55,111 nt of DNA from Candidatus Komeilibacteria bacterium (GTDB lineage Bacteria > Patescibacteriota > Patescibacteriia > UBA1558). The notes under the pieces were generated by a model, which was not told the origin of the DNA, made no database searches, and saw only the letters and a list, made by a program, of their open reading frames with translations. Shown piece after piece: positions 17,091-41,254 of this stretch (position 1 is the first letter of the stretch; the number at the start of each line of letters is the position of its first letter). The stretch is taken from NCBI GenBank assembly GCA_048538275.1, contig JBLYPW010000001.1:431928-487038 (forward strand). Reading direction: 5' to 3'. Made by a program: the position numbers and the translations under genes.

Positions 17091-17212
17091 CACCCCGTCA
17101 GCTTAAGCTAACGAGGCCCGTCACGTCAGCTTAAGCTAACGAGGCCCGTCACGTCAGCTTAAGCTAACGAGGCCCGTCACGTCAGCTTAAGCTGACGTGA
17201 CCCATCTGACGG
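17091..17212. repeat. mosaic repeat cluster 1: 28-bp tandem unit GTCAGCTTAAGCTAACGAGGCCCGTCAC x3 plus a terminal perfect palindrome
   Basis: Units at 17097-17124, 17125-17152 and 17153-17180. The array ends in GTCACGTCAGCTTAAGCTGACGTGAC. Read directly. Confidence 0.9.
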
Positions 17213-17244
17213 AACACTCTCTACTCAAATCATTACTCCAGACG

Positions 17245-17931
17245 CTATTTTTTTCTAAACCTAATTCTAAATAAACTAATTAAAGTACCAAAATAGTCTT
17301 TTAGCTTAACATGGCTACGGCCATCGTCACGCCACTGCACAGGTATTTCTTTAATAGTGAATCCTCTTTGCTTGGCTAAATATAATAGCTCCATATCAAA
17401 ACTCCAACCCACTTCTTGCAACTCATTAAATAATTGAGCCGCTCGCTCAGAAAACAGTTTAAAACCGCACTGACTATCATGAATTCCCGGCAATAAAGTG
17501 ATTTGTACTAATAAGTTTCCCAGTTTACCAGCCACTACTTTATACCAAGGCTGAGAATATAGTATTTGACTACCCGGTAAAGCCCTGCTGGCAATAATAA
17601 TATCATAATCGGCGCTATATTCCAAACATTTTGTCAACTCAGAAATTGGTGTTGCCAGATCTATATCCATAAATATACGCCACTGACCGCGGGCTGCTAA
17701 CATACCGGCTGTGACGGCCGCTCCTTTACCCTGATGATAATTTTTTATAATCTTGACAGATAACTTACTGGCCAGCTCAACAGTATTATCGCCACTACCG
17801 TCATCACTCACTATAACCTCACTGGCAAAATCCTGCTGCTCCAACCAGCGCAATATTTTAGTCAAATTATCCTGAATAATAGAGGCCTCATTATAAACCG
17901 GTATGATAATTGATAGATATGGTTTAGACAT
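17245..17931 (-). CDS. glycosyltransferase family 2 (GtrB / dolichyl-phosphate glucosyltransferase-like)
   Basis: LSIIIPVYNEASII...VIVSDDGSGDNT...DIDLATP motifs. Confidence 0.8.
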   Translation of the reverse strand: MSKPYLSIIIPVYNEASIIQDNLTKILRWLEQQDFASEVIVSDDGSGDNTVELASKLSVKIIKNYHQGKGAAVTAGMLAARGQWRIFMDIDLATPISELTKCLEYSADYDIIIASRALPGSQILYSQPWYKVVAGKLGNLLVQITLLPGIHDSQCGFKLFSERAAQLFNELQEVGWSFDMELLYLAKQRGFTIKEIPVQWRDDGRSHVKLKDYFGTLISLFRIRFRKK

Positions 17932-18370
17932 GATTGAATACCCAGCGACGACTCATAAAAAAGTTCCAAAGAAAACCCAAAAACACGCCGATTAATTTGC
18001 CGATTAAATCATAAACCTGCCAATGCTCCACCGCATAATACAAAGCAGATTGGGCGATTACAAAACTTCCCAACCACATGATAAGAATATATTTCAATAA
18101 TAGTAGCCAAGAAAAAACCACTTTTTTATTGGCAAAAGTCCAACCATAATTCATCAAAAAACTACAAATGACCGCCGTGCCAAAAGATATCGCATTGGCC
18201 TGTAAATAATGAACGGAAAAATACTCTGTCAAACGAGTTAAACTAATATAAATAGCATAATCCAATAAAGTATTGATCAGTCCAACTGTGGCAAAGCGCA
18301 AGCCCTGTACCAAGACTAAGCGCCATTTATTTATAATTTTATTAATTAGCCAAGTCAACATTGACACCAC
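17924..18370 (-). CDS. GtrA family membrane protein
   Basis: 148 aa with four TM helices and RFATVGLINTLLDYAIY. Overlaps the downstream GT2 gene. Confidence 0.75.
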   Translation of the reverse strand: MVSMLTWLINKIINKWRLVLVQGLRFATVGLINTLLDYAIYISLTRLTEYFSVHYLQANAISFGTAVICSFLMNYGWTFANKKVVFSWLLLLKYILIMWLGSFVIAQSALYYAVEHWQVYDLIGKLIGVFLGFLWNFFMSRRWVFNHV

Positions 18371-20270
18371 CGGTTAAATTATTATCAAGCACAAAATACT
18401 GCGCTGCTAATTGGCCGTCATCCGTCCACCAGCGCAAATGTGGCCCACCGCCTTGATTGGGAGTGGTCACTAGCATATTATTAGCAGCGCTAATTTGTAT
18501 GCCGCCCCGCCAGTTATCAGCATAAGCCAGCCACTGTTTTTGCACCTTACCTTGCCAATCATATTGCCGTACCCAAGGCGCTTGTCCGGCAGTCGCAGTG
18601 ATATAAAAATATTGACCATTGGCTGTCATGCTATCAGCGTCTGCGACTGTCCATTGCTTTTCTAATAAACCTAGTTGATTATAAGCGCTTAACTGGCGAT
18701 CTGTCAGTATCAAGATTTCAGTATAATTATCTTTATCATAATCACTGGCACTAATATCCAAAATAATATTGTGAGCCGCCCAGCTCGTCAGTTTATCACC
18801 CTCGCCGCTCCACAATTCTACAACCTTACTGGCGGTATTGTCAGACCATACTAAAATCCTATTGTCCATCAATGCTACTTTTGCGCCGTGAGGATCGTCG
18901 CCATTGAGCACATCCCATTGTTTTATTAGATCGCCGGTCCAGCTCAATACTTTCACTTGCGGCTTAGCCTGACCTGCGGGAGCGGTGATGATTTCTGGAC
19001 GACCGTCACCATCTAGATCGCCTACCGCTAAATTAATACCACCGGACCATTCTGGCCAAGCAACTATTCTACGCTCCAGTTGGCCGAGTTTATTATATAT
19101 ATCCACTATCCCCTGATAATCGGACTGAGGAGCAACGACAATGCTATCATTATAATGCACTAATTGACTAACCGCTGCCAGACTGGCAGCAATATTTAAT
19201 CGGCCAGCACCCAATTTAGCCGGGTATAAAGGATTGGATGCCTCAATCGGATCACTATTGTCTTTTAAGACAGTTATTATTTCCTGAGCTGATAAACTAG
19301 GACGATAGGCTTTGAGCAAAGCAGCTGCTCCTGCTACCACCGGCGTGGCTAAAGATGTGCCAGACCAATGGCCAGAAAATTTATCACGCCACTCTGCTAG
19401 GGCGGGCTGATAAACAGTTAAACCAAAAAACCTTTCCCCAGGAGCGCTCATATCCACACAATTGCCATAGTTTGCAAATAAAGACTTTTGGTCTAGCTGA
19501 TTCACGGCCGTCACTCCTAAAACATTATTATAAAGGCCGTCACTACAAATAGGATAACGGGGATGAAAAGTTAAATCCAAACTATTGTCTGCATTATTTG
19601 CACCAATGGTTTCATTACCGGCTGCCGCCAAAACCAATACCCCGGCTTTACCAGCTTGGGATATTGCCAAATCTAAGGTAGAATTTGTTTCCGCGCCAAC
19701 CAATGATAGATTGATAATATCAGCACCATTGGCCACTGCATAATTTATAGCACGGCTCACATCGTCCAAATTACCATTGCCATTACCATCCAAAGCTACC
19801 AGCGGCATGATTGATACCTGCCAATTTATACCGGCTATACCATAGTCATTATTTCCCATAGCACCGATAATACCGGCCACGATAGTACCGTGCTCTATGC
19901 CCAATTCAGAATGAAGCGCATCCAGCTTGGGCTGAGGATCAGACTCATTATGAATAAAATCCCAGCCATAAACATCATCTATATAACCATTGTGATCATT
20001 GTCTAGACCATCGCCCGGCACTTCATCATTATTTTTCCAAATATTGGCATAAAGATCCGGATGGCCGATATCCACACCGGTGTCAATCACGGCCACCACA
20101 ATATCAGAAGATCCAGTAGAATAATTCCAAGCAGACGGTGCGCTAATTTGATTCAAATAATATTGTTCGCCTAAAAACGGATCATTACTACTTTTCGCCA
20201 TTACAAAATTTGGTAGCATTAAGGCAACGGCGATTAAATACAAAAAAGTTTTGGCATAAACAGCTCTCAT
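18342..20270 (-). CDS. secreted S8 (subtilisin-like) serine peptidase with C-terminal repeat/propeller-like region
   Basis: Signal peptide. Catalytic triad contexts VAVIDTGVD, HGTIVAGIIGA and SGTSLATPVVAGAAALL. The C-terminal half has FG-GAP-like DLDGDGRPEI. Confidence 0.85.
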   Translation of the reverse strand: MRAVYAKTFLYLIAVALMLPNFVMAKSSNDPFLGEQYYLNQISAPSAWNYSTGSSDIVVAVIDTGVDIGHPDLYANIWKNNDEVPGDGLDNDHNGYIDDVYGWDFIHNESDPQPKLDALHSELGIEHGTIVAGIIGAMGNNDYGIAGINWQVSIMPLVALDGNGNGNLDDVSRAINYAVANGADIINLSLVGAETNSTLDLAISQAGKAGVLVLAAAGNETIGANNADNSLDLTFHPRYPICSDGLYNNVLGVTAVNQLDQKSLFANYGNCVDMSAPGERFFGLTVYQPALAEWRDKFSGHWSGTSLATPVVAGAAALLKAYRPSLSAQEIITVLKDNSDPIEASNPLYPAKLGAGRLNIAASLAAVSQLVHYNDSIVVAPQSDYQGIVDIYNKLGQLERRIVAWPEWSGGINLAVGDLDGDGRPEIITAPAGQAKPQVKVLSWTGDLIKQWDVLNGDDPHGAKVALMDNRILVWSDNTASKVVELWSGEGDKLTSWAAHNIILDISASDYDKDNYTEILILTDRQLSAYNQLGLLEKQWTVADADSMTANGQYFYITATAGQAPWVRQYDWQGKVQKQWLAYADNWRGGIQISAANNMLVTTPNQGGGPHLRWWTDDGQLAAQYFVLDNNLTGGVNVDLAN

Positions 20271-20320
20271 GATTGATATTATAACAAAATACTGTGATTT
20301 TGTCTTTTTATTATTCTGCT

Positions 20321-20758
20321 GTCCGCCCCGTCAGACGGGCCTCGTCAGCTTAAGCTGACGTGACGGGCCTCGTCAGCTTAAGCTGACGTGACGGGCTTCC
20401 CCTCGTCATTTCTACAGAGCATAAACAAGCGGAGAAGCCTCTCAACACACGACTTCACAATAGACTTCTCCGCTTGTCCGCACTGCGTTTGGACAGCGGT
20501 CGAAGTGACAATGTATTGTACTTAGTTTTGTTATTCTGACCACAGCTCTCTATCCTTTCCCCTCGTCACTTCGACCGAACCATCATACCCCCTCCGTCAT
20601 TTCGCCAGAGTCATCATACTCCCTCCGTCACTTAGACTGAGTCATCATAACCCACCCGTCACTTCGACCGTAGTCAACATACCCCCTCCGTCACTTCGAC
20701 CGTAGTCAACATACCCCCTCCGTCACTTCGACCGAGCGCAAGCGAGCGGAGAAGTCTA
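20321..20758. repeat. mosaic repeat cluster 2
   Basis: Two 28-bp palindrome units (20337-20392), a degenerate Y/X hairpin composite (about 20402-20510) and module T. Then five to six tandem 30-32-bp V units (20559-20735), ending in module Y (20721-20757). Confidence 0.9.
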
Positions 20759-20806
20759 TATTATGCAAACGATAGTTAAACAAGCAACTATTACATAAAA
20801 CATTTA

Positions 20807-21115
20807 CTATAATTCATTGAATAAATCATGCCAATTAGGGTTAACACTATTAATAAGTTTAACTTTTTTACTCCTCCTCCATCTTTTAATTTGCTTCTCT
20901 CTACTTATTGCTTCCATCGGGGATTCAAATATTTCATAGTATAGTAGAATATGACAATGATACTTTTTAGTAAAACCATCATTAACGTTATTTCTATGCT
21001 CCATTACACGTCTAATTATATTGTTTGTCATGCCAATACATAATACCCTTGATTTGCTTGACATGATATAAACATAATACAACTTATAATAATCCCTATA
21101 TTTTTTCCAAAACAT
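20807..21115 (-). CDS. GIY-YIG nuclease family protein (URI domain, COG2827-like)
   Basis: 102 aa with YYVYIMSSKSRVLCIGMTNNIIRRVMEH and REKQIKRWRRSKK, both typical of small GIY-YIG proteins. Confidence 0.8.
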   Translation of the reverse strand: MFWKKYRDYYKLYYVYIMSSKSRVLCIGMTNNIIRRVMEHRNNVNDGFTKKYHCHILLYYEIFESPMEAISREKQIKRWRRSKKVKLINSVNPNWHDLFNEL

Positions 21116-21143
21116 TTTAATTTATATTATTTATATTACAGTA

Positions 21144-21340
21144 GTATTGCTATTAGACTTCTCCGCTCGTCCGCACTGCGTTTGGACATCGGTCGAAGTG
21201 ACGGGGAGGTGTGATGAGCAGACAAAGGCACCGTCAGACGCCGCAAGCCCCGTCAGACGAAACAGATCTAGTCTGACGGGGCAAGCCCCGTCAGACGCCG
21301 CAAGCCCCGTCAGACGAAACAGATCTAGTCTGACGGGGCA
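21144..21340. repeat. mosaic repeat cluster 3
   Basis: Module X at 21155-21203, followed by a 57-bp tandem duplication (period 21231 to 21288). Each copy contains a CCCCGTCAGAC-12 nt-GTCTGACGGGG hairpin. Confidence 0.9.
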
Positions 21341-21363
21341 AGCTCCTTTTGCTCCCCGCCCGA

Positions 21364-21397
21364 TAAAACAAAAAACAGGATCATGAAACGACCCTGT
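21364..21397 (-). terminator. intrinsic terminator downstream of 21421-22938
   Basis: Minus strand: ACAGGG-11 nt-TCCTGT followed by TTTTTTGTTTT. Confidence 0.6.
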
Positions 21398-21420
21398 TTT
21401 TACTCACTGGAAAATAACTT

Positions 21421-22938
21421 TTAATCAATCAGATCGCCATCCGGATAAATCTCAAAGACGGGCACGGTAATTATTCTATCCCAACGATAATGGCGGGTAT
21501 TAAAAGCCGCCTCACTGCTAATCCAGCGCTTGTGCCCATTGTCCAACAAATAAACTCGGGGATCGCCAGCATATTTGATTAAAACACCATCCGGCTTGGT
21601 AGTGGCGTCGGTAATAGCCTGTTGCTCGGGATAGTCAGCTAAACTATCAACCCCCACACGATAAGCCCAATCATCAGAAAAACCCAAAGCATTATATAGT
21701 TGAGTGGTCATGAATATACGCTTGCCGCCATCACTGATAAAATAATAAGTTGCCGCCCCTACTTTTACTACTGACCCATCACGGAATTTCAAATTCTCAC
21801 CACGCGGTAAACGATAAATCTTACTATTGACCTGTGCTTGAACGGGCTTGGCGCTCCAAGAATGCAATATATCGCTACTGCTAACCAAATGCCGAATATT
21901 ATTTTCTACCCAATAAATATGTTCATCGCCCACCATTTTATAAATTCCCGGTTGACTGACATCATTCACTTCCCAGCCGGGCACGGAAGCCAATAAACGA
22001 TAATAACCAAGACGATAAATATCCGCTCGCGCAGTACTGTTGTTAATATCAACGGTCGTGGGTAATACCAGCCATTGTTTAATCTCATCATCATAATAGG
22101 CCAAACGCAATGTATCACTAGCAAAATTATTTAAGCGTCTATCAGCAAAACTAATAGAAACAGTAACCCTGGCATTAAACTGCTCAATATCTTCACCCGT
22201 CACACTATCTTGCAGGCTAAGTTGCCACGGCTGTTCATAAACAGTAAATAAACCACTGGCAATACTGGGAGTGGCAGGATAATTATTATAAGGGGAAGTA
22301 ATCTGTAAATCAGCATGAGTATTGACTGCTCCCTGAGGCAGGCCCAAAGTTATTTGATGCTGATAACTTTCATAGAGAGTGGTTTTACCGGCTATATCCG
22401 GGGTTAGCTCAAGTCTGCCATTATTGCTAATAACGGCAAAATCACCCTCATCCAGAAAATTAGTTTGGCACGACAAAGTCTTAAATTGGCCGTTGGCACT
22501 TTTCTGCTCATTGCCACCGGCATCCAATAAAGCTACTTGATAATGATATGTTGTACCGCAAATCAAACCAGACAAAGTGTTATTTTGTCTACCCTGTTGC
22601 CAATACAATAAAGTAGTGGATTGGTTGAGCCGACCGACACCATAATAAACTTTGGCACGGCTCATATACGGCGCTGTCCATGATACCGTCACGCTATCCT
22701 TATTGATATTATTAATGCTAATATTGCGCGGTTGCGCTTCGGCAGGCGTATAACCATAATTTGCCAAAGGCTCAATATTATAACCCATACCGGTATCTGT
22801 TTGCCCGCTACCGTTTATCCCTATACCCTGACGAAAAGAAGTGTCACTACTGTCAGTACGATAAAAATAAGCTTGACCAAGTAGTGGCCAAACCAGCAAA
22901 GAAACTATTATGAGCACTAGAAAAGATTGACGTTTCAT
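21421..22938 (-). CDS. secreted protein with fibronectin type III-like domain and C-terminal surface-repeat domains
   Basis: MKRQSFLVLIIVSLLVWPLLGQA signal peptide at the Met at 22938 (the track ORF extends to 23007). FN3-like DSVTVSWTAP...YHYQV. C-terminal repeats shared with 26098-26577 and the N-terminus of 28522-32583. Confidence 0.6.
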   Translation of the reverse strand: MKRQSFLVLIIVSLLVWPLLGQAYFYRTDSSDTSFRQGIGINGSGQTDTGMGYNIEPLANYGYTPAEAQPRNISINNINKDSVTVSWTAPYMSRAKVYYGVGRLNQSTTLLYWQQGRQNNTLSGLICGTTYHYQVALLDAGGNEQKSANGQFKTLSCQTNFLDEGDFAVISNNGRLELTPDIAGKTTLYESYQHQITLGLPQGAVNTHADLQITSPYNNYPATPSIASGLFTVYEQPWQLSLQDSVTGEDIEQFNARVTVSISFADRRLNNFASDTLRLAYYDDEIKQWLVLPTTVDINNSTARADIYRLGYYRLLASVPGWEVNDVSQPGIYKMVGDEHIYWVENNIRHLVSSSDILHSWSAKPVQAQVNSKIYRLPRGENLKFRDGSVVKVGAATYYFISDGGKRIFMTTQLYNALGFSDDWAYRVGVDSLADYPEQQAITDATTKPDGVLIKYAGDPRVYLLDNGHKRWISSEAAFNTRHYRWDRIITVPVFEIYPDGDLID

Positions 22939-23122
22939 AGTAGCAATAGAGTACCAATTCGCCAAAAAAATGTCAACTGCCCATGCCCCAAATATTAAAA
23001 TCCCCACTACCTAAGAATTCTTATAGGTATTGTCATTGCCAATTCTAATAGAATCAACTAGCTTCTCAGCCTTAGTATTGAGCAAATAACTTGGCAATCG
23101 TATTTATATCGCCTGTATAATA

Positions 23123-23352
23123 TAGACTTCTCCGCTCGCTTACGCTCGGTCGAAGTGACGGAGGGGGTATGATGGCTCGGTCGAAGTGACGAGAGGGAAG
23201 GATAGAGGGCTGTGATCACAATAACAAAACTAAGCACAACCCATGGTCACTTCGACCGATGTCCAAACGCAGTGCGGACGAGCGGAGAAGTCTATTGTGG
23301 ATTCGTGCGCTGAAAGACTATTCTGCTCGTTTATGCTCTATCAATGTGATGG
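23123..23352. repeat. mosaic repeat cluster 4
   Basis: Module Y (23124-23160, +), module T (inverted), module X (23246-23294, inverted) and a degenerate Y arm. Confidence 0.9.
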
Positions 23353-23445
23353 TGTAATGCGCCCAAATGGGCCAAGCGACAACCCATCATTAATACCTGT
23401 GGACAAACACATTGACACTCCTCTCTAATATGTTAATATTGAGAT

Positions 23446-23513
23446 ACAAATGGTATCCCCTTTACGGGGTTGCTCCGAGACTCCATATCGCAAGATATGG
23501 AGATCGTTTTTTT
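23446..23513 (+). ncRNA. candidate small RNA convergent with the MazF-like gene
   Basis: TTGACA (23412-23417), 16 nt, TAATAT (23434-23439). Then a CCCC/GGGG hairpin and CTCCATATC-GCAA-GATATGGAG (23481-23502) followed by T7. No ORF. Confidence 0.4.
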
Positions 23514-23907
23514 ATAAATAATTTTTTATCTTTTTCTTGACATCAATAAAAACATCATCATCAATAATCCCTATTTTCCTAATCAATCTTTTACTGCTCA
23601 ATAATCTTAATGGGGGTAAAATTATCGTTTGTGATTGATCCTTAAAAGTAAAATTATAATAATAGCTACCATCCCTTGGCTTGGTAGTTGTGGGAATTGC
23701 CCAAAATATCTCTTTATTGAATTTCTTGATGATAATCACAGGTCTTTCAAATTTCGCATTCTTTCCATCTTGTTCATAACCAATATTCATACCTAAGCTA
23801 GTCCACCATATTTCCTTTTCCCTATAATATAGGCACCTATTCTCAGCAATATGTATTCTTACTTTTAGTTTAGTCCACTCAATAAATCTCCGAATATACT
23901 CTTCCAT
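23512..23907 (-). CDS. PemK/MazF-like toxin family protein (no adjacent protein antitoxin)
   Basis: EIWWTSLGMNIGYEQDG...RPVIIIKKFN...AIPTTTK...LSSKRLIRKIG resembles the longer PemK/MazF subfamily. Recognised from memory, not searched. Confidence 0.55.
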   Translation of the reverse strand: MEEYIRRFIEWTKLKVRIHIAENRCLYYREKEIWWTSLGMNIGYEQDGKNAKFERPVIIIKKFNKEIFWAIPTTTKPRDGSYYYNFTFKDQSQTIILPPLRLLSSKRLIRKIGIIDDDVFIDVKKKIKNYL

Positions 23908-23994
23908 ATTTTTATAATAAATAATAAATAATCAAAAAAGGGTCTGACGACCCTTTAAGCTATAATATAAAATCAAAGTCAGTTAGTCAAACCT

Positions 23995-24258
23995 CGCCCC
24001 GTCAGACTAGATCTATTTCGTCTGACGAGGCTCACCCCGTAAGACTGAGCCTGCCACGTCTGACGGGGCTTGCGGCGTCTGACGGTGCCTTTATCTGCTT
24101 ATAACACTTCCTCGTCACTTCGACCGATGTCCAAACGCAGTGCGGACGAGCGGAGAAGTCTATTGTGGATTCGTGTGTTGAGAGACTATTCTGCTCGTTT
24201 ATGCTCTATCGAAGTGACGAGGGGGAAGGATACAGAGCTGTGGTCAGAATAACAAAAC
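23995..24258. repeat. mosaic repeat cluster 5
   Basis: GTCAGAC/GTCTGAC hairpins, module X (24113-24161, inverted), a degenerate Y arm and module T (inverted). Abuts the higA stop codon. Confidence 0.9.
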
Positions 24259-24262
24259 ATTA

Positions 24263-24562
24263 CTATTTAAAACTTACCACTAATTGCTTATCTAAGGCTT
24301 TAGCTATTTTGTCTAGCATTTTAATAGTAAAATTTTGTTGACCAGATTCAAGTCTGGCAATATTACTTTGACTAGTTGCCAATTTTTTAGCCATCTGAGA
24401 TTGAGTGATTTTTTGTTGTCTACGAATATGATTAATAGCATAGGCTATCTTTAATTGCCTACCATAATGATCATATAATCTTTTAAACTCAGGATCTTTT
24501 AATTCCTGTTCTAAATATTCATTAAAATCTGTAGCCTTTAATTGTTTTTTACCATTACTCAT
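24263..24562 (-). CDS. higA: XRE-family HTH antitoxin (HigA-like)
   Basis: ITQSQMAKKLATSQSNIARLESGQQN helix-turn-helix. Overlaps the upstream toxin gene by 8 nt. Confidence 0.8.
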   Translation of the reverse strand: MSNGKKQLKATDFNEYLEQELKDPEFKRLYDHYGRQLKIAYAINHIRRQQKITQSQMAKKLATSQSNIARLESGQQNFTIKMLDKIAKALDKQLVVSFK

Positions 24563-24917
24563 ATATTTTAGGATTATTATATACGTCGTTTAAATTATTA
24601 ATAGCTTTATCTATTTCTCTCTTTGGAGTCTTTTTTGTTTTTTTATTAAAAGCATGTAAAAGTATTATAGTTTTATTTATAAAAGTAAAATAGAAAATCC
24701 TATGAAAGTGCTTATTAAAATCTACGCGCAGCTCTCTAAGTTTTCCTTGTATATGCTTTGAATAAGGTTCATCCAAACATCCTCTATGAAAAACTAATAA
24801 TTCAATATAGCTATAAACCTTAGCTTTTGTTTTACTGGGCAATTTAGTAATATAATCTAAAACAGGTTCTTTGCTATTTGTACTATTTTTATAAAATTTT
24901 ACTTTATATTTTTGCAT
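24555..24917 (-). CDS. higB: RelE/ParE superfamily toxin, Gp49/HigB-like
   Basis: GKLRELRVDFNKHFHRIFYFTFINKTIILLHAFNKKTKKTPKREIDKA matches the Gp49-like (DUF891) toxin pattern. Toxin-first gene order. Confidence 0.8.
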   Translation of the reverse strand: MQKYKVKFYKNSTNSKEPVLDYITKLPSKTKAKVYSYIELLVFHRGCLDEPYSKHIQGKLRELRVDFNKHFHRIFYFTFINKTIILLHAFNKKTKKTPKREIDKAINNLNDVYNNPKIYE

Positions 24918-25067
24918 ATTTATAATATATCATAAATGATATATTGTCAAATTAATTAATATACTAAAAAAGGGTTCGCTTTCTCAACGACCCTTTATTA
25001 TCTATACCTTATAATATTATTTATTCCTAGTCAATCACAGTATATTCCTGAAAATATTTATCTGGGA

Positions 25068-26030
25068 TTATCTTATTTTAATGCCTAATAACAGCAAAAC
25101 TAGGCCTATCATCTTATCTTTATCCCCAGACTTACTTTCAGCAATCAATAGTGTTAAAGTTGTTAGTGCTTCTGGAGATAGATTGTTTTTCAACAATCCT
25201 GCTTTATTCAAATACCAAACAAAAGTAAAAGCTGCACTACGTTTATTGCCGTCAATAAATGGATGATTTTTTACAATATAGTATAAAAAATTAGCAGCCT
25301 TTTCTTCGTTACTTGGATAAACATCCTTATTTCCAAATGATTGAAAAACATTACCAATAATACCTTCAACTGAATTCACAGCTCTTTCTTTACCAAATAT
25401 GTCTGTTGCTTGTTTCTTTGCAATCAAATTAGCTTTTAATTCATTAAGTGCTTCTACTAAACTTTTTGCTGTAATATCCACCTTCTTTCTAATTGAACCA
25501 TTCTTGGGAAAGTTTTCTTTATCATAAGCTTCTAATGACATCCATGTACTTGAGAAAAGATTTATGAGTTCCAATGCATCTTTCGTGCTAATTTCACTAC
25601 TTGCCGGTATTACTGCTTTTAAATCATACAAAGCCTTCTGAAAAGCTTTGTAGTTATTCTTAATTCTTCCCTTATTGACTGTATACCCATCTATTAAATG
25701 TTGTTTTAATACTTCAGTCGCCCATTTACGAAAAACTATTGCTTTAGCAGAATTCGTACGATAACCTACCGCCAATATAATATCTAAAGAATAAAACTTT
25801 ACAGGTTTATCTGAATTTGCAATGTGCATTTTTTGCACATTGCTTTTTTCATCCACTTCACCATCTTTTAAAATTTTATTTATATGCTTTGTTACTACAG
25901 ATCTTTCTGTATCAAAAATATCTGCAATCTGTTTTTGCATTCCCCAAATAGTATCTCGCTTAAAATCTCCACGAAATTCAATTGATCCATTTTTTGCTTG
26001 ATAAATTACCAATTGTTTTAACTCTTTCAT
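25068..26030 (-). CDS. RhuM-like N-terminal domain fused to Fic/Doc domain
   Basis: N-terminal half is RhuM-like (SIEFRGDFKRDTIW...ILAVGYRTNSAKAIVFRKWATEVL). The C-terminal half has the Doc-type motif HPFIDGNKRSAAF. Confidence 0.7.
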   Translation of the reverse strand: MKELKQLVIYQAKNGSIEFRGDFKRDTIWGMQKQIADIFDTERSVVTKHINKILKDGEVDEKSNVQKMHIANSDKPVKFYSLDIILAVGYRTNSAKAIVFRKWATEVLKQHLIDGYTVNKGRIKNNYKAFQKALYDLKAVIPASSEISTKDALELINLFSSTWMSLEAYDKENFPKNGSIRKKVDITAKSLVEALNELKANLIAKKQATDIFGKERAVNSVEGIIGNVFQSFGNKDVYPSNEEKAANFLYYIVKNHPFIDGNKRSAAFTFVWYLNKAGLLKNNLSPEALTTLTLLIAESKSGDKDKMIGLVLLLLGIKIR

Positions 26031-26097
26031 ATTTTTATAATAAAAAGGGTTACTAATAATAGTGACCCTTAAAACAATAATATATTAAACTTAAATA

Positions 26098-26577
26098 CTA
26101 GTCAATTAGAGTATATTCCTCAAAATATTTATCTGGGATCATTTGGACCCGTGCTGCCCAGTCAGCACCATAAGTAGCCCTGACCGCGGCCGGCGATCGC
26201 AACCAAGTCAACTCCCCTACTGCGGTTACGGCATAAACCTTATCCCCGATGATCTTTTTTACCAAGGTACCGACCGGCAAAAACATATCCCGACCATTAG
26301 CAAAATTATTCATATCTCTGCCGTCAATTTTATCCACAACAATATCATCACCAGCATAATAATGAAACATAGCTTGATTGTACAACCAATATCTGGTCTG
26401 CTCTTTTACCAGATACACTCGATCACTAGAATCTGCTTTTATATATTTATCTGTTGAAACTGTTCTTAGCAGTACAACTTCTTCACCATTTATTAATGTT
26501 GGCTCAGCACCGACCATTGCCTGCGCCATTGACGGTAAGAAAATAACTAATAGTAATAATAAAATATTTTTGCGCAT
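26098..26577 (-). CDS. small secreted protein with surface-repeat domain
   Basis: Signal peptide MRKNILLLLLVIFLPSMAQA. The C-terminus VYAVTAVGELTWLRSPAAVRATYGADWAARV parallels VYAVEPSGNLRWIPSEEIAAGLYGADWASRV in the 1353-aa protein. Confidence 0.6.
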   Translation of the reverse strand: MRKNILLLLLVIFLPSMAQAMVGAEPTLINGEEVVLLRTVSTDKYIKADSSDRVYLVKEQTRYWLYNQAMFHYYAGDDIVVDKIDGRDMNNFANGRDMFLPVGTLVKKIIGDKVYAVTAVGELTWLRSPAAVRATYGADWAARVQMIPDKYFEEYTLID

Positions 26578-26614
26578 GTTTTTTTTCTGACTTAAATAAT
26601 AATGCGAATATTAT
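26504..26614. repeat. 111-bp direct repeat, copy 1
   Basis: Identical to 27326-27436. Covers part of the -10 region, the 5' UTR, the start codon and the first 24 codons of 26098-26577. Confidence 0.9.
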
Positions 26615-26754
26615 ATAGTTTTTTTAAATATTTTCAACTCCCTATTGACTATTATCCATCCACATGCTACCATTAAATCGTGATATTTGTGAGGACTTTA
26701 GTTCTCCCGCGGTTAAACACATAAAACCGCAGACAAATATCATGCAAAAAAAGT

Positions 26755-27309: not shown

Positions 27310-27399
27310 TCAACTCATAACCTCTTCAGCACCGACCATTGCCTGCGCCATTGACGGTAAGAAAATAACTAATAGTAATAATAAAATATTTTTGCGCAT
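27310..27399 (-). pseudogene. orphan 5' fragment (signal peptide only) of the 26098-26577 gene
   Basis: Encodes MRKNILLLLLVIFLPSMAQAMVGAE, then EVMS and TGA. Lies within repeat copy 2. Confidence 0.7.
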
Positions 27400-27436
27400 G
27401 TTTTTTTTCTGACTTAAATAATAATGCGAATATTAT
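27326..27436. repeat. 111-bp direct repeat, copy 2
   Basis: Identical to 26504-26614. Confidence 0.9.
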
Positions 27437-27525
27437 GTAGTGTTTTTTAATTTATCACACCCAAAAACCGACATCTGTACGATGCCGGTTGGCAAAAATT
27501 TGTATAAACACTAATAGCTGATTAG

Positions 27526-32943: not shown

Positions 32944-32949
32944 CATCAC

Positions 32950-33945: not shown

Positions 33946-33984
33946 TATATATAGTTTATTTTTTTATCACCCCTCTCCTAACAG

Positions 33985-34370
33985 CGTCATAGTATCCTTG
34001 TGATACAGGGCTTTATCCTTTCCCTTGTCATTTCGACCGTAGTCACGCCCAGTCAGACGTGGCCTCGTCAGCTTAAGCTGACGTGACGGGCTTCCTCTCG
34101 TCATTTCGACCCAACTATCATTTTCTTTGTCACTTCGACCGAGCGCAAGCGAGCGGAGAAGTCTCTCAGCACACCACTCCCTTATAGACTTCTCCACTCG
34201 TCCGCACTGCGTTTGGACATCGGTCGAAGTGACGAGGAAGTGTTATAAGCAGATAAAGACCCTGTCAGACGTGGCAGGCTCAGTCTGACGGGGTGAGCCT
34301 CGTCAGACGGCAAACATCTAGTCTGACGGGGCGAGCCTCGTCAGACGGCATATATCTAGTCTGACGGGGG
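33985..34370. repeat. mosaic repeat cluster 6
   Basis: Module T, palindrome Z (about 34062-34091), a Y/X hairpin composite (34128-34234) and three GTCAGAC-12 nt-GTCTGAC hairpins (34263-34366). Confidence 0.9.
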
Positions 34371-35294: not shown

Positions 35295-35596
35295 CCCCGT
35301 CACTTTGACTGTAATTCATGGGTATTGCTATTAGACTTCTCCGCTCGTCCGCACTGCGTTTGGACATCGGTCGAAGTGACGAGGAAGTGTGATGAGCAGA
35401 GACAAAGGACCCTGTCAGACGGGCCTCGTCAGCTTAAGCTGACGTGACGGGCTTCCCCTCGTCATTTCAACCGAGCAATCATACCTCCCCCACCGTCACT
35501 TCGACCGAGCGCAAGCGAGCGGAGAAATCTCTCACCACACCACTCCCTTATAGACTCTCCACTCGTCCTCACTGTGTTTGACAGCGGTCAAAGTGA
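35295..35596. repeat. mosaic repeat cluster 7 (left arm of the ~290-bp inverted repeat)
   Basis: X (35333-35381), linker, palindrome Z (about 35420-35452) and a Y/X composite (35494-35596). 35295-35587 is the reverse complement of 40819-41108. Confidence 0.9.
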
Positions 35597-35662
35597 CAAG
35601 TCTATTATTGTGTCGTCTTGTTATTATTAACCCTCTATTACTCCCTTGTTGATTATAATCAT

Positions 35663-35962: not shown

Positions 35963-35999
35963 TTTGACAAGACAATAAAATTGCTGCTATATTAATATC

Positions 36000-36176
36000 A
36001 CCCTAAAAACCCGTCCTGTGACCTGCCTGTTATAATACACTCTACCTAATTTGGTAAAAGCGTATACTCCACATAACTTGTCAGGTCACTACCCGGTAGC
36101 TACAGAATGTAACCATTCTGTGCACTCCCTACCCCCCGGCTTATAGCTTAAAGCAGCTGGGGGGTTTATTTATTTT
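36000..36176 (+). ncRNA. candidate structured small RNA A
   Basis: TTGACA 35964-35969, 18 nt, TATATT 35988-35993. Internal stems GTGACCTG/CAGGTCAC and ACAGAATG-TAAC-CATTCTGT. CCCCCC...GGGGGG hairpin plus T-rich tail (36132-36176). No ORF. Confidence 0.45.
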
Positions 36177-36223
36177 GACATAATAACTATTGACACTTTA
36201 CCCACTATCTGCTATGCTTGCAG

Positions 36224-36328
36224 TGCTGTCCTGCACAAGCGCCTAGACTAGAAGAGATAGAAAATCTTCAAATAGGCGAAGCAAACAAAAGGGGCCCCAA
36301 TCTTATGTCCAAAAAAGGGGCCCTTTTT
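36224..36328 (+). ncRNA. candidate structured small RNA B
   Basis: TTGACA 36190-36195, 17 nt, TATGCT 36213-36218. Stems TGCAG/CTGCA and CGCCT/AGGCG. GGGCCCC...GGGGCCC hairpin followed by TTTTT (36291-36328). Confidence 0.4.
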
Positions 36329-36364
36329 ACTTGACAAATATATAAGCTTTTTATACTATTGAAT

Positions 36365-36548
36365 CATAACCTAGGGTTGTATAAACAACTACTAGGTGAA
36401 AAAAATGGCGCCCGTGTTATTTAATATATCAATGCATAAATCCTCCTCACGGTTAAGCAAAGATACATAGCGGGCGCCATTACTTCACATCTTATGACCT
36501 TAATTTTTTGAGATGTGCTGACTGACTGCTTAAAGTGGTCAGTTTTTT
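36365..36548 (+). ncRNA. candidate structured small RNA C (contains a 21-codon sORF)
   Basis: TTGACA 36331-36336 with TATACT/TACTAT at 15-17 nt. 10-bp inverted repeat ATGGCGCCCG/CGGGCGCCAT (36405-36414, 36471-36480). Terminator ACTGACTGC-TTAAA-GTGGTCAGT plus T6 (36521-36548). Confidence 0.45.
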
Positions 36549-36596
36549 GTGGAAAAAAAGCTTGACAATAATAACATGATAATTTAATATTATTTG

Positions 36597-36772
36597 CATA
36601 TGGGCCTGTAAAGCCTATGACATAGCGCAAGGATAGCGCAATCATACAACGGGTATTTACCCGTAAAACTGCTATAAAGCAGTCCTGTATGGTCGCCTGG
36701 ATACGTGGGATTATCCTGAGCAACCAACACAATTGAAAAGGGCGGGACAGCAATGTTACTGCCCTTTTTTAT
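36597..36772 (+). ncRNA. candidate structured small RNA D
   Basis: TTGACA 36562-36567, 17 nt, TAATAT 36585-36590. Hairpins ACGGGT/ACCCGT and CTGCT-ATAA-AGCAG. GGGC...GCCC terminator plus T6 (36737-36772). Confidence 0.45.
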
Positions 36773-36827
36773 TTCCAGTGAACATTTATACAAAACAACC
36801 TGTCTTTAAAATAGACGGGTTTTATAT

Positions 36828-37706
36828 TTACTTGCGATTGAGACTGGCAAGCCATTGCTTTGGATTATCTTTTATATATTCCCTAATTCTTTCCAAATCA
36901 TCATCGTCTCCTATGATGTGTTCATAATAATTTCTTTGCCAAGCAAAATCACACAAACCCAATTTGTGTATTGCTTTGGATGTCATCATTTTATATTTGC
37001 CAATTAACATGGGTAATACCATACGTCGCCTATTTTTTATCATTTTTTTACGTAGAGGCAATTCATGAATTGCCTCTACGGGTTGGGGCATCATACGTTC
37101 ACACCCATCATGAATTGCCTCTACGGATGACATAATATGGTTTGGCGCATCATGAATTGCCTCTACGGGTTGGGGCATCATACGTTCACACCCACCATGA
37201 ATTGCCTCTACGGGTTGGGGCATCATACGTTCACACCCATCATGAATTGCCTCTACGGATGACATAATATGGTTTGGCGCATCATGAATTGCCTCTACGG
37301 GTTGGGGCATCATACGTTCACGCCCATCATGAATTCCCTCTACGGATGACATAATATGTTCACGCCCACCATGAATTGCCTCTACGGATGACATAATATG
37401 GTTTGGCGCACCATGAATTGATTTTAAAATCTGAATAATGAGATGGATATGATTAGGCATGATAATATATTCATCTAATTTTACATGCTTGAATTGCGCG
37501 CTTAATTTCTCTAAATTATCCTGTGCAATCTGACCGTATCTATTTAATAACACCCTATATTGTTTTACCTTGCCAAAATATTTTCTTTTATTTTTTACAC
37601 AAATAGTAATAAAATAATATCCCGGCCTGGAATAATCATAAAACGGCAAGCGTAATGACTGCGTTCTATATTTATTTTTATACAAAGCCGATTTATATTT
37701 TGCCAT
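36828..37706 (-). CDS. IS200-like Y1 (HUH) transposase, REP-associated tyrosine transposase-like, with internal repeat expansion
   Basis: YDYSRPGYYFITICVKN N-terminus, HUH motif MPNHIHLII and catalytic-Tyr region FAWQRNYYEHII. Eight VEAIH-containing 14-15-aa repeats lie between them. Terminator hairpin at 36797-36822. Confidence 0.8.
   Translation of the reverse strand: MAKYKSALYKNKYRTQSLRLPFYDYSRPGYYFITICVKNKRKYFGKVKQYRVLLNRYGQIAQDNLEKLSAQFKHVKLDEYIIMPNHIHLIIQILKSIHGAPNHIMSSVEAIHGGREHIMSSVEGIHDGRERMMPQPVEAIHDAPNHIMSSVEAIHDGCERMMPQPVEAIHGGCERMMPQPVEAIHDAPNHIMSSVEAIHDGCERMMPQPVEAIHELPLRKKMIKNRRRMVLPMLIGKYKMMTSKAIHKLGLCDFAWQRNYYEHIIGDDDDLERIREYIKDNPKQWLASLNRK
37050..37425. repeat. in-frame 42/45-nt minisatellite inside the Y1 transposase gene, with a terminal 30-bp palindrome
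   Basis: Core GAATTGCCTCTACGG starts at 37067, 37112, 37154, 37199, 37244, 37286, 37331 (1 mismatch) and 37373, with a partial copy at 37414. Perfect palindrome CGTAGAGGCAATTCATGAATTGCCTCTACG at 37050-37079. Confidence 0.9.
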
Positions 37707-37792
37707 AAAAAAACAAAGTCTATTAACAAGACCCTGTTTTTTATTGCATAAACTTTTTTACAGAATAATCAAATAAGCAATATTTGTCAAAA

Positions 37793-39295
37793 TTATTTAA
37801 TCGCAAATATTTTTATTTTAGCCAAAGCCGCCTTGGCCAAAGCCATACGCTGTTGGCTTTGTGCATATAAAGTAAACAATCGCTGATCCTTCTTAACTGT
37901 ATCACCATACTCAACATTCAAATAAATACCGGCTAATTTATCCTTAGGCGCTCCCAAAATCCTACATAGAGTATTGATTTTTTTATTGTCTGTCAAAACA
38001 ATCTTGCCGCTCCGGGGCGCATTTATATAATGCTTAATAGCGCCAATAGTAATATCCTCCGAATCAATTTTGTGTTGTCCGCCTTGGGCTTTGATGATGG
38101 CCTGCATTTGCTGCCAAGCCGCCCCTGATGCCAAAGTCTTTTTTGCCAATGCCTGGCCCTTGCCCTTGGGCGCTTTACCGGCCAATTCTAATAGTTCTCC
38201 GGCCAATCTAACAGATTTCTTTTCTAAATCAAAGGGACGAATATCTTTTTGCTGTAATACGCGCAAAACATCGCGCGCTTCCAAAGAAGGGCCAATGCCC
38301 TGGCCGATCGGATCCAAACTCAAAGTTTTGATCACCTTAATCTTGATGCCAAATTGCCGGGCCACATATTTAAATTTTCTTTCTAACATAGCGGCTGTCT
38401 TCATATCCGGAATTTTAGCTGTCTCCCCGACAGGCATATCAATAATCAAATGATTGACCGAGGTAGCGACTTTTTTAGCCATGACCGACACTATCATTTT
38501 ATCATAAGGCTCCAAAGATAAAGGATAAGTCACTTTTAGTATCCTATCATCAGCCGGTGCCAGATTAAAACCGCCGCCCCAAACCATGCAAGCGCCGGTT
38601 TTGCGTACTATTTCTTTCATTTCAGAAGCCGAGAATGTGACCGGGGCCAATACCTCCATAGTATCTGACGTGCCGGCCGGTGAAGTAATCGCTCGTGAGG
38701 AAGTTTTTGGTATTTTTAAGCCTAGGGCAGAAATAATTGGGATAATAACCATAGTTGTTCTATTACCCGCCAAGCCGCCGACCGAATGTTTATCTACCAC
38801 CAAGCCTTTATAATGTATTGTCTCGCCCGTTTCGGCTATCGCCCGTGTCATATGAACAAGCTCCTGATTGGTATATGGATACATATAAGTCGCCGCCACA
38901 AAATAAGTGATCTCCGTATTGCTCAAACGATTATTGACTATATCGGTAATGATGGATTGCGCATCTTGCTTGGTCAAACGCTTGCCTGTCAATTTTCTTT
39001 TGATGGCCTGCACCGAAGCCGGCCTGCCCAAAACTTCTACCTCTACTATTTCATTACTTTCCACGGCATGGCGGGTCCAGACATCTTCATATAGGCCAAT
39101 TTCGCCCGGCTTGATATGTTTATCTGAAAGATTGGCTTCTACCACCACTTTTTTTCTACCGCGCCAATGTAAAGAAATTTTATCACCGGCATGAATGCCA
39201 TAATGATAAGCCTCTTCTTCATTCAATAAAGCGATTAAAACTTGGCCGGTAGAAAAATCCAACTTTTTTACCTTGAGATAATATGGTGCTGCCAT
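37793..39295 (-). CDS. deoA: AMP phosphorylase (thymidine phosphorylase family, archaeal DeoA type)
   Basis: 500 aa. Extra N-terminal domain (YYLKVKKLDFSTGQVLIALLNEEEA) and pyrimidine-nucleoside phosphorylase core (DKHSVGG, TSRAITSPAGTSD). Adjacent to RuBisCO. Confidence 0.85.
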   Translation of the reverse strand: MAAPYYLKVKKLDFSTGQVLIALLNEEEAYHYGIHAGDKISLHWRGRKKVVVEANLSDKHIKPGEIGLYEDVWTRHAVESNEIVEVEVLGRPASVQAIKRKLTGKRLTKQDAQSIITDIVNNRLSNTEITYFVAATYMYPYTNQELVHMTRAIAETGETIHYKGLVVDKHSVGGLAGNRTTMVIIPIISALGLKIPKTSSRAITSPAGTSDTMEVLAPVTFSASEMKEIVRKTGACMVWGGGFNLAPADDRILKVTYPLSLEPYDKMIVSVMAKKVATSVNHLIIDMPVGETAKIPDMKTAAMLERKFKYVARQFGIKIKVIKTLSLDPIGQGIGPSLEARDVLRVLQQKDIRPFDLEKKSVRLAGELLELAGKAPKGKGQALAKKTLASGAAWQQMQAIIKAQGGQHKIDSEDITIGAIKHYINAPRSGKIVLTDNKKINTLCRILGAPKDKLAGIYLNVEYGDTVKKDQRLFTLYAQSQQRMALAKAALAKIKIFAIK

Positions 39296-39514
39296 AAAAA
39301 AATTAATAATTAAAAATTAGAAATAATTGATAGAACAAAACTTGCTACGCCCATGCTGTGGCTGAGGCGATTTTTGCTTGTCATTTTTTGTCTCACCCTG
39401 TACAACTTACCCACTTATTGACTTATGCCGCCGCTGGCGGCATTTCGTCCAAGGCGGTGGTAAACTTAACGCTTACCAAGTAAATCAAAATATATTTCTG
39501 AAGAAAATAAATCA

Positions 39515-40783
39515 TCACTCCTGCCAATACTTCAAAGCAGTGGCTAATTCTTTATGTTCTTGAGCTGCCTTAGTCAAAGAAATACCGGCTAAAGTAGCCT
39601 GCAATGCTTGATGGGCCGCCCGAGCGCCAGCTGCTACGCCTTGCGGATGACCAAAAATACCGCCACCAAAATTGATAATCACCTCTTGCCCGATATATTT
39701 AACCACATTAGGAATCATGCCCGGCTGCAAACCACCCGAGGCCACCGGCATAACCGGTTTAATACTGCTCCAATCACTACGCAGATTATCAAAATGAGCC
39801 CAATCCTCTTTGAGAAAGTCATCCAATTCAGTTACTACTTTACTATCCCCGTCCATTTTTCCCACCACGGTACCAGTGTGTAACTCGTCAATACCAGCCA
39901 GCCGTGCTAATTTAGCGACCACCAACATGCTCATACCATGCTCTGGCAAACGAGAAAACATTGAATGTCCGGCGCGATGACCATGCATCACCAATCCTAA
40001 GTTTTCCTGACGCAAAGACTGTATTGCGCTCCATCCCATGGCAATAATATCCACCATCATACAAAATCCCCCATGAGCTTTGATATATTTAGCTCTTTTT
40101 AGAGCCTCATTATAAGGTGCGGTGATATTGATAATAGCCATTTTTTTCTGGCCGGTTTCTTTTTCTACCCGCCTGCGCATCTTCAATACCTCGCGCACTC
40201 TTTCTCGGAAATGATTGAAATCCTGATCAGTTAGATTTTCATCATCTTTGACGACATCAACACCGTTTTTCCAAAGCTGATAACAAGCATTGGCGTGTTG
40301 CTTGGCGGTCAGACCAACCTTAGGCTTGACGATAGATCCTACTAAAGGCCGCCCCTGAATATTCAGTAATCTACGTAAGCCATCAATACCAAATCTTGGG
40401 CCGGGCATACTTTTTATATAGCTTTTGGGAAACTCTATATCTTCCAAACGTAAATGCTCCACTACTTTCATGGAAAATATATTACCAGCAATACTGGATA
40501 ATAACTGAGGAATATTACCCTCTTCAAATAAAGCTAAAGGATAGGCTATTTTTACCATATGCTTGCGTCGGTCTTCCCCAATAATCTTAGGTGCCAATTT
40601 TTTATACTGCGCTTTTGATAACCTAGCAATCTTTGTCCAGGTACCGATAGAACTTTCACCGGCAATAGCATGCACGGCCTCGCGCCACGACAAGCTAGGC
40701 GCGTCAAAATAGAATTTGGCGATAATATGCTTTTCCGGATTAAACGGCTTAGTAAATTTATAAAAATTAAATTGACTATACAT
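39515..40783 (-). CDS. rbcL: ribulose-1,5-bisphosphate carboxylase large subunit, form III / II-III-like
   Basis: 422 aa. Active-site motifs GVDVVKDDENL, MHGHRAGH and FGGGIFGHPQG. No small-subunit or Calvin-cycle genes nearby. Confidence 0.9.
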   Translation of the reverse strand: MYSQFNFYKFTKPFNPEKHIIAKFYFDAPSLSWREAVHAIAGESSIGTWTKIARLSKAQYKKLAPKIIGEDRRKHMVKIAYPLALFEEGNIPQLLSSIAGNIFSMKVVEHLRLEDIEFPKSYIKSMPGPRFGIDGLRRLLNIQGRPLVGSIVKPKVGLTAKQHANACYQLWKNGVDVVKDDENLTDQDFNHFRERVREVLKMRRRVEKETGQKKMAIINITAPYNEALKRAKYIKAHGGFCMMVDIIAMGWSAIQSLRQENLGLVMHGHRAGHSMFSRLPEHGMSMLVVAKLARLAGIDELHTGTVVGKMDGDSKVVTELDDFLKEDWAHFDNLRSDWSSIKPVMPVASGGLQPGMIPNVVKYIGQEVIINFGGGIFGHPQGVAAGARAAHQALQATLAGISLTKAAQEHKELATALKYWQE

Positions 40784-40814
40784 AATAATACTAAATATTA
40801 AAAATTAATTTACT

Positions 40815-41254
40815 TGCCCCGCTGTCAAACGCAGTGCGGATGAGTGGAGAGTCTATAAAGGAGTGGTGTGCTGAGAGACTTCTCCGCTCGCTTGCGCTCG
40901 GTCGAAGTGACGGAGGGGGTATGATGGCTTGGTTGAAATGACGAGGGGAAGCCCGTCACGTCAGCTTAAGCTGACGAGGCCCGTCTGACAGGGTCCTTTG
41001 TCTCTACTCATCACACTTCCTCGTCACTTCGACCGATGTCCAAACGCAGTGCGGACGAGCGGAGAAGTCTAATAGCAATACCCATGAATTACAGTCAAAG
41101 TGACGGGGCTTGCGGCGTCTGACGGGGCTTGCGGCGTCTGACGGTGCCCTTATCTGCTCATCACACTTCCTCGTCACTTCGACCGATGTCCAAACGCAGT
41201 GCGGACGAGCGGAGAAGTCTAATAGCAATACCCATGAATTACAGTCAAAGTGAC
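40815..41254. repeat. mosaic repeat cluster 8 (right arm of the inverted repeat plus a 98-bp tandem duplication)
   Basis: 40819-41108 is the reverse complement of 35295-35587. 41007-41104 is repeated exactly at 41157-41254. Confidence 0.9.

Follow-up and report, generated by a model that had tools for sequence, protein, structure and literature searches.

Hairpin repeat mosaics tagged with CGTC around a predicted Ssn-family GIY-YIG gene in a Komeilibacteria-like genome

Two kinds of described element come closest to the repeats considered here. Chenal et al. (2025, Nat Commun; PMC11893778) described the Ssn proteins (CDD cd10448), nucleases with a single GIY-YIG domain which bind a cognate hairpin, the NTS or Ssn-related motif (SRM; CGTCATTCCCGCGMAVGCGGGAATCYRG), solely as single-stranded DNA (ssDNA) and cut it a few nucleotides upstream of its tag. 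Three bases before the palindrome of the NTS govern cleavage and the C after it governs binding, and SRMs are found nearby for 71% of Ssn homologues (PMC11893778). The other kind is the superfamily of CGTC-tagged repetitive extragenic palindromes (REPs), whose hallmark is a terminal CGTC or TGTC tag on a hairpin and which includes Neisseria dRS3 and mosaic intergenic arrays (Di Nocera et al. 2013; PMC3733652); according to its authors it has no dedicated transposase. Here we analyse a 55-kb stretch of a Komeilibacteria-like genome of the Patescibacteria, called the window below, in which eight intergenic clusters are built from short repeat modules (X, Y, Z, W, V, T and Q) and a small GIY-YIG gene lies between two of them. 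Module counts and pattern scans refer to this window.

The interpretation that we consider probable is that X, Y and V are CGTC/TGTC-tagged hairpin repeats of the class that accompanies Ssn proteins, that the GIY-YIG gene encodes their cognate protein, that gene-less hairpin doublets are derived, and that the mosaics were inserted at tight gene junctions. Repeats and enzyme belong to kinds already described, in 2013 and 2025 respectively; what is new here is the host, whose phylum is not named in the main text of PMC11893778, and the variant of the hairpin. The gene in question is as follows.

20807-21115, - strand: Ssn-family GIY-YIG gene, 102 amino acids, GC content 28%, Pfam GIY-YIG match at E 3e-12

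An earlier note on this DNA had overlooked the gene, which is flanked by modules on both sides and homologous to Neisseria ssnA. GIY-YIG is the sole Pfam match, covering residues 13-84, and the product is a single-domain protein of fewer than 150 residues, as in the Ssn system. When the window protein was compared by tblastn with PLSDB, which includes two mislabelled N. gonorrhoeae chromosomes, a single N. gonorrhoeae locus was retrieved (E 1e-13, 35% identity, 84% cover; 8e-20 locally). That locus encodes a protein of 94 amino acids, the size reported for SsnA, with nine canonical NTS around it. The match lies within the limits that PMC11893778 sets for SsnA homology (E < 1e-10, at least 75% cover), the reference being the gonococcal orthologue and not CAX49033.1 itself. 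Matches in the PDB were weak and to UPF0213 proteins (E 1e-3), so that the protein is not a close member of that family. The first catalytic Tyr, Arg36, Glu73 and Asn92 are all present. The gene lies 49 nt from a Y (20721-20757) and 39 nt from an X (21155-21203), and thus has tagged hairpins within 500 bp on both sides, with their tails towards the gene and their tags outward; at the Neisseria locus, the tags face the gene. The gene's GC content differs from those of the repeats and of the host on average. From its sequence, the open reading frame is predicted to encode the cognate protein of the hairpin repeats.

On the sense strand X and Y both read [C/T]GTC-ACTTCGACCG...CGGAGAAGT-C: the tag comes first, then an imperfect hairpin and, after the palindrome, a C. 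This order is also that of the NTS, CGTC-ATTCCCGCG..CGGGAAT-C, whose copies are likewise clustered around genes. Y has the form CGTC-ACTTCGACCGAGCG-CAAG-CGAGCGGAGAAGT-CT and X the same layout with an extended apical portion. Of the X and Y copies, twelve fit [CT]GTC + ACTTC...GAAGT + C and can be read as oriented hairpins of 20-50 nt with GTC immediately 5' and C immediately 3' of the palindrome. V consists of the tag and 5' arm only, followed by 18 nt, and is repeated in tandem in an array that closes with a complete Y, while Z and W are perfect palindromes with CGTCAG on both strands. The window hairpins differ from the NTS in length (37 and 49 nt against 28 nt) and in their interrupted stems, which are of 5+3+2 or 5+3+4 bp with internal loops; the terminal loop has 4 nt in Y and 11 nt in X. 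On this interpretation X and Y are a longer, interrupted-stem variant of the Ssn-associated hairpins.

The comparison with the CGTC-tagged REPs (CGTC-1 to -4, PMC3733652) is similar. A terminal tag of the CGTC/TGTC/CCTC type is present, Y has a loop of 4 nt (CAAG), and the hairpins form inverted heterodimers with 20-100-nt spacers sited between unidirectional genes. The window stem, however, starts with AC in most copies and not AT, is longer than 8-9 bp and interrupted, and is followed by a CTA or CTC tail in place of CCA, so that the full published description (8-9 bp in a stem that begins with AT, 4-5 nt in the loop, and a CCA tail) does not apply; that survey also found no dedicated enzyme. 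Neisseria intergenic mosaics (dRS3/RS arrays) likewise interleave CGTC-tagged palindromes with other modules and have ssnA among them, but their module sequences are unrelated to ours, and the window arrays include tandem half-hairpins and double-tagged palindromes (Z and W). The earlier note did not recognise the sequence family. At the level of sequence this holds, since no described element matches; as a class, though, the modules are recognisable as CGTC-tagged REPs and SRMs. The same note had reckoned a match to an already described repeat family as counting against its proposal; at class level, there is such a match. Rfam, which it had proposed to search, gave no match in any cluster either at gathering thresholds or at E <= 1. 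An exact 25-mer of X had no match among GTDB genomes, a full-text literature search with the module sequences retrieved nothing relevant, and viral contigs contained no X or Y match and one isolated W-like palindrome.

The clusters are blocks of 51-59% GC in an AT-rich window of 39.8% GC. All eight had been located previously, and only the ends of cluster 3 (now 21342) and cluster 7 (now 35597) were adjusted. The proposal that a small module set is reused in varying order and orientation is borne out by a module map made with blastn-short and by a multiple alignment of the composites: X, Y, Z, W, V and T recur in both orientations across the clusters, far above chance. The motif GTCACTTCGACCG, counted by eye at about 28 places, occurs at 26 sites with at most two mismatches, all of them in clusters, and at 19 with at most one, against 0.03 expected. 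About ten copies of X had been estimated and ten were mapped (20462, 21155, 23246, 24113, 34186, 35333, 35556, 40826, 41022 and 41172; those at 35556 and 40826 are degenerate); for Y, put at about five, there are five good copies (20721, 23124, 34129, 35494 and 40876) and three degenerate ones. The 26-bp perfect palindrome described as Z does exist, but at a single site (17176), the recurrent unit being an 18-bp core, CGTCAGCTTAAGCTGACG, with six exact sites and nine with one mismatch. W half-sites, CCCCGTCAGAC, number 23 at up to one mismatch, V has 5.7 tandem units of 31 nt, in agreement with the period of about 31 bp given before, and T has four copies. CGTCA has 66 sites in the clusters (2,382 bp in all) and 80 in the remaining 52.7 kb, an enrichment of about 18-fold. 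The clusters, to which no strand is assigned, are as follows.

17091..17212: cluster 1, four tandem 28-nt Z units with a CGTCAGCTTAAGCT[A/G]ACG core (period 28, 3.6 copies, 98% matches), with an epimerase/UXS-like gene on one side and a GT2 gene on the other
20321..20758: cluster 2, W half-site, two Z, degenerate Y (20405-20440), spacer, X (20462-20509), T (20522-20555), V half-hairpin array (20559-20736, about 5.7 x 31 nt) and complete Y (20721-20757, CGTC tag on the + strand)
21144..21342: cluster 3, the right arm of the gene-bearing unit, with the 11-nt GTATTGCTATT, X (21155-21203), Q (21209-21240), W hairpin, W half-site and W hairpin; W region -39.1 kcal/mol, z -9.95
23123..23352: cluster 4, Y, V unit, 3' half of Y, T (inverted), X (inverted, 23246-23293), spacer and degenerate Y; an inverted copy of part of cluster 2 (195 nt, 87%)
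23995..24258: cluster 5, W, W variant, Q, X (24113-24161), spacer, degenerate Y and T, all inverted relative to clusters 3 and 6
33985..34370: cluster 6, between sigma and DUF5667, with T-like, V-like head, W half, Z, V-like, Y (34129-34164), 21-nt spacer, X (34186-34234), Q and three W
35295..35597: cluster 7, orphan arm and 21-nt spacer (module F), X (35333-35381), Q, Z, V, Y (35494-35526), spacer and degenerate X
40815..41254: cluster 8, between RuBisCO and e2b2, an inverted copy of cluster 7 (197 nt at 97%, 102 nt at 100%) with a second W-half/Q/X/F unit

Adjacent clusters repeat one another in inverted form over long stretches, most closely at 35295-35491 and 40912-41108 (197 nt, 97% complementary). 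The composite of inverted Y, spacer and X is indeed capable of forming a hairpin, as had been suggested (-29.6 kcal/mol, z = -7.0 against shuffles). Regions of W and Z also fold far better than shuffles; X alone, Y alone and the V array do not. Strand bias relative to replication was examined, and sense hairpin copies are about equally frequent on both strands because they come as inverted doublets. Open reading frames of 60-89 amino acids lie wholly inside clusters at 21147-21386 (+), 24070-24252 (+), 33967-34197 (-) and 41004-41273 (-). Their translations mirror the repeats, with LLDFSARPHCVWTSVEVT, for example, twice in one of them, and the calls are very likely, indeed almost certainly, spurious.

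Alignment of the clusters reveals one recurring composite, (V)-Y-spacer-X-(Q-W... or T). Every X sits in an inverted heterodimer, whose partner and spacer take four forms.

Form A: Y and spacer type A, in clusters 6, 7 and 8
Form B: degenerate Y and spacer type B, in clusters 2, 4 and 5
Form F: orphan 5' arm and spacer type F, once in cluster 7 and twice in cluster 8
Gene-bearing form: Y and a 397-nt ssn segment of 26% GC, in clusters 2/3

In the alignment, each arm of the gene-bearing unit has its counterpart in the gene-less composites, in the order V-Y, then spacer or gene, then X-Q-W, with the ssn gene in the place of the 21-nt spacer. Spacer F, moreover, ends in the same 11 nt (GTATTGCTATT) that link the ssn segment to X. 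The simplest reading would be that the nine gene-less doublets, with their 21-nt spacers, are internal-deletion derivatives of the gene-bearing unit. The proposed relation is that of MITEs (miniature transposable elements with inverted repeats) to insertion sequence (IS) elements, or of REP doublets forming hairpins (REPINs) to REP-flanked genes for REP-associated tyrosine transposases (RAYTs). We infer this derivation from the alignment of the units.

Comparison with relatives bears on how the clusters came to lie where they do. The window RuBisCO has its nearest matches (71-73% identity) among the type III enzymes of Candidatus Komeilibacteria and other Patescibacteria, and two Komeilibacteria-type assemblies, L015 and L016, have a long syntenic block in common with the window: GT4-GT4-SecD-SecF-sigma/HARE-DUF8128-TrwB-like-e2b2-RuBisCO-AMP phosphorylase ... 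HTH_17-sigma-DUF5667-1,3xx-aa protein. Gene identities proposed earlier (epimerase/UXS-like, GT2, sigma, DUF5667, RuBisCO, IF-2B/e2b2 and Y1_Tnp) were upheld, as was, for two of the three gene pairs that it had named, the statement that clusters split genes that are usually adjacent.

e2b2 - RuBisCO junction: 10 nt in L015, 55 nt in L016, 493 nt in the window (cluster 8)
sigma - DUF5667 junction: overlap in L015, 43 nt in L016, 454 nt in the window (cluster 6)

This comparison of orthologous loci, which the earlier note had recommended, found every module to be absent from the syntenic relatives L015 and L016, and none is present in L015-L017 as a whole. Given the tight junctions and the lack of modules in the relatives, the clusters are therefore regarded as insertions specific to this lineage, made between closely spaced genes that are probably co-transcribed. 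Across clusters 6-8, the genes keep the order and orientation that they have in the relatives without clusters.

The association of gene and hairpins extends well beyond the window. Thirteen further homologue genes (36-64% identity) were collected on 14 loci, two of the genes each being recovered on two contigs. Their sources are plasmids or chromosomes of Azospirillum, Planktothrix, Spirosoma, Shinella, Aeromonas, Photobacterium, Novosphingobium and Neisseria and, for five genes, metagenomes (L008/L009, L010, L011, L024 and L025/L026). Hairpins tagged [C/T]GTC flank the gene in 14 of 14 cases, the window's included, across several phyla. In a uniform scan of 12 loci (the window, L008, L010-L014 and L018-L022), 45 tagged hairpins lie within 400 nt of the genes compared with 8.7 in shuffles. 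The outer stems vary by locus and remain complementary (ACTTC/GAAGT, ATCCC/GGGAT, ATTCT/AGAAT, ATCCT/AGGAT, ATTCC/GGAAT, GCCCC/GGGGC), although this is an illustration and no independent test of covariation, because perfect outer pairing was demanded by the scan. The closest homologues (L024, L008 and L011) have the layout 'tag..tail [gene] tail..tag' of the window. On plasmid AZO_p3 of Azospirillum lipoferum (L014, 1360-1875), a unit of hairpin-dimer, ssn and hairpin-dimer stands between sufB and sufC, and is another instance of a split conserved operon.

Half-hairpins are also found elsewhere. Plasmid p1 of Planktothrix agardhii (L013, 1150-2000) has tandem copies of tag and 5' arm closing in one complete hairpin, and in Photobacterium (L019, about 1080-1165) a single extra half-unit lies next to a complete hairpin. 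Since such arrays occur beside these homologues too, they seem to be a by-product of a process acting at such sites. The Planktothrix homologue is located between an MmeI-type restriction-modification gene and DISARM drmA. Elements of 36-39 nt that match Y itself at 97% are present in a Cyclobacteriaceae genome (L007) and on a metagenome contig (L002), and a Pirellulales genome (L005) has a match at 92%. With a looser X/Y end pattern the total rises to seven contigs, through another Pirellulales genome (L006) and three further contigs from metagenomes. All seven are unrelated contigs, much more GC-rich than the window, and no match to that pattern came from the source genome or a close relative. 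Such a distribution across phyla means either that the hairpin is tightly constrained by its protein or that the system moves horizontally.

The following scheme may be suggested. An ssn gene fills the spacer of an inverted Y-spacer-X hairpin doublet, and gene-less doublets would arise as REPIN- or MITE-like derivatives of that unit. Together with Z, W, Q and T modules and half-hairpin arrays, the doublets would accrete into mosaics resembling Neisseria intergenic mosaic elements (NIMEs) or bacterial interspersed mosaic elements (BIMEs), and the mosaics would insert into otherwise tight gene junctions of this Patescibacteria genome. The window protein would bind X and Y. Ssn-dependent cleavage of ssDNA during replication, repair or DNA uptake could then lead both to spread and to tandem duplication of half-sites, repair or slippage after cutting upstream of a hairpin being a plausible cause of the half-hairpin arrays. 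Its present role might be the control of recombination or of incoming ssDNA, as in Neisseria. A bolder version, which we advance tentatively and would not at present favour, has Ssn as the long-missing mobilising enzyme of the CGTC-tagged REPs, the doublets as deletion derivatives of ssn units, the operon-splitting insertions as recent events in a reduced Patescibacteria genome, and the half-hairpin arrays as a footprint of cleavage and repair.

Several observations weigh against assigning this locus to the Ssn class. Cys26 (..RVLCIGMT..) takes the place of the second catalytic Tyr, a residue that is Tyr in 13 of 13 aligned homologues, and the catalytic set of two Tyr, Arg and Glu is consequently incomplete. 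Since the Y17A mutant of SsnA keeps ssDNA binding and loses cutting (PMC11893778), the window copy may be inactive; it may be a binder only, a decaying gene or an assembly variant. The published SRM pattern, HGTCWYN(0-2)YYVSBRHN(0-5)WNVSBRGN(0-2)RNCYNB, has no site in the window and none beside the closest homologues. The pattern itself works, as the same script finds nine sites at the Neisseria locus and four at the Azospirillum locus. What it does not detect is a widespread class of Ssn-associated hairpins of greater length, and the system is therefore underestimated wherever surveys rely on it. Z and W have tags on both strands and G rather than C after the palindrome, and do not read as oriented hairpins. 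As they lack that C, it is co-location that links them to the Ssn; they are probably co-travelling members of the same mosaic. No Ssn is known to mobilise DNA.

Other explanations were weighed against the same evidence. The earlier note saw a likeness to REP/BIME or REPIN systems and suggested as partner the Y1 transposase gene at 36828-37706 (-), which would make the modules REP or REPIN elements mobilised by a RAYT-like enzyme. The likeness is real, in that a modular hairpin family lies between genes adjacent in relatives, as mosaic clusters with inverted doublets of REPIN type and short spacers. A single-copy gene for a nuclease recognising ssDNA hairpins even stands between two hairpins, as in REPIN-RAYT systems. 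The partner is where the proposal fails, for the gene inside a doublet encodes a GIY-YIG and not an HUH/Y1 protein. The best NCBIfam match of the Y1 protein is indeed the REP-associated tyrosine transposase, but at 54 bits, under the cut-off of 80. The inverted clusters 7 and 8 do enclose its gene in a segment of 5.2 kb, yet the nearest modules are 1.2 kb and 3.1 kb away and there are no module-like inverted repeats at the gene's ends. The module tags are CGTC/TGTC and not the GTAG of REP/REPIN-RAYT systems, published surveys contain no RAYT flanked by CGTC repeats (PMC3733652), and the Y1 protein has a tandem-repeat insert of about 100 residues between its HUH and Tyr motifs. We judge mobilisation by this transposase to be improbable.

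Somewhat easier to entertain, though still unlikely, is the idea that the repeats serve the host in a structural or regulatory capacity, for example as terminators, mRNA stabilisers or recombination sites, and have spread through duplication and recombination nearby. The GIY-YIG would then be a selfish homing gene that targets these hairpins without contributing to their formation. Clusters 7/8, 2/4 and 5/6 are large inverted duplicates, which fits segmental copying better than unit-by-unit transposition; the ssn GC content of 28%, against 51-59% for the repeats, suggests different histories; a catalytic Tyr has been lost; and a few terminator-like hairpins occur within Q and W. Most modules, however, have no T-run, the clusters are missing from syntenic relatives, gene-less doublets retain the 11 nt of gene-proximal sequence, and the pairing of gene and hairpins in all 14 genes from several phyla, with stems that vary yet stay complementary, argues for co-evolving partners over chance targeting. 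Far less credible is a reading of the clusters as recombination sites, attC-like or of cassettes, in an integron-like or invertible-segment system. They do bracket small gene sets (GT2-GtrA-S8, fn3, PemK, and a segment with a Gp49/HTH pair and RhuM-Fic), and orientation alternates between successive clusters. Yet no integrase or invertase was found in the window, where about 20 open reading frames at 16-44 kb were scanned against Pfam and the remainder read by eye, and the modules have no attC-like R''/L''/L'/R' layout. Since no recombinase was found and gene order across clusters 6-8 is as in the cluster-free relatives, this reading was rejected. A CRISPR was also rejected, the V array having no unique spacers.

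Other features of the window may be recorded. The insert of the Y1 protein corresponds to an in-frame tandem array at 37051-37420 (units of 42-45 nt, about 7-8 copies, each with CATGAATTGCCTCTACG), owing to which the protein is longer than its homologues (292 against 175-215 residues). CATGAATTGCCTCTACG has no further site in the window, and a PDB search with the Y1 protein gave no match. Positions 37051-37080 form a perfect 30-nt palindrome with a GTAG tag. Between clusters 4/5 and a large surface-protein gene is a dense run of addiction- or defence-type genes (23512-26030) encoding a PemK/MazF-like toxin, a Gp49(HigB-like)/HTH_3 pair and a RhuM-Fic fusion; in the relative L015, a Gp49/HTH pair instead directly follows the AMP phosphorylase gene. 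A 126-nt direct repeat (26504-26629 and 27326-27451, 98% identical, 822 nt apart) lies around two small open reading frames, and there is a second pair at 25010-25071 and 26081-26142 (82%), neither being related to the CGTC modules. Four TTGACA-type promoter-like sites on the + strand (35964, 36190, 36331 and 36562, in the region 35964-36830) are each followed by 130-230 nt of non-coding sequence, several of these units ending in a hairpin and T-run (for instance at 36282-36333, 36520-36544 and 36797-36821). The units are oriented against all neighbouring genes and have no Rfam match; they could be a tandem set of small-RNA genes. A full-length bacterial RNase P RNA of class A is encoded at 54534-54964 (-; 190 bits).

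The interpretation of X, Y and V as Ssn-associated hairpins would extend the partnership between Ssn proteins and hairpins to a Komeilibacteria-like Patescibacteria genome. The locus is unusually legible, a gene-bearing unit standing beside nine gene-less doublets with the same arms, and relatives without them being available for comparison. It bears on two questions, namely whether Ssn elements are, or were, mobile and what propagates the CGTC-tagged REPs, and it offers circumstantial support for the present or past mobility of Ssn units.

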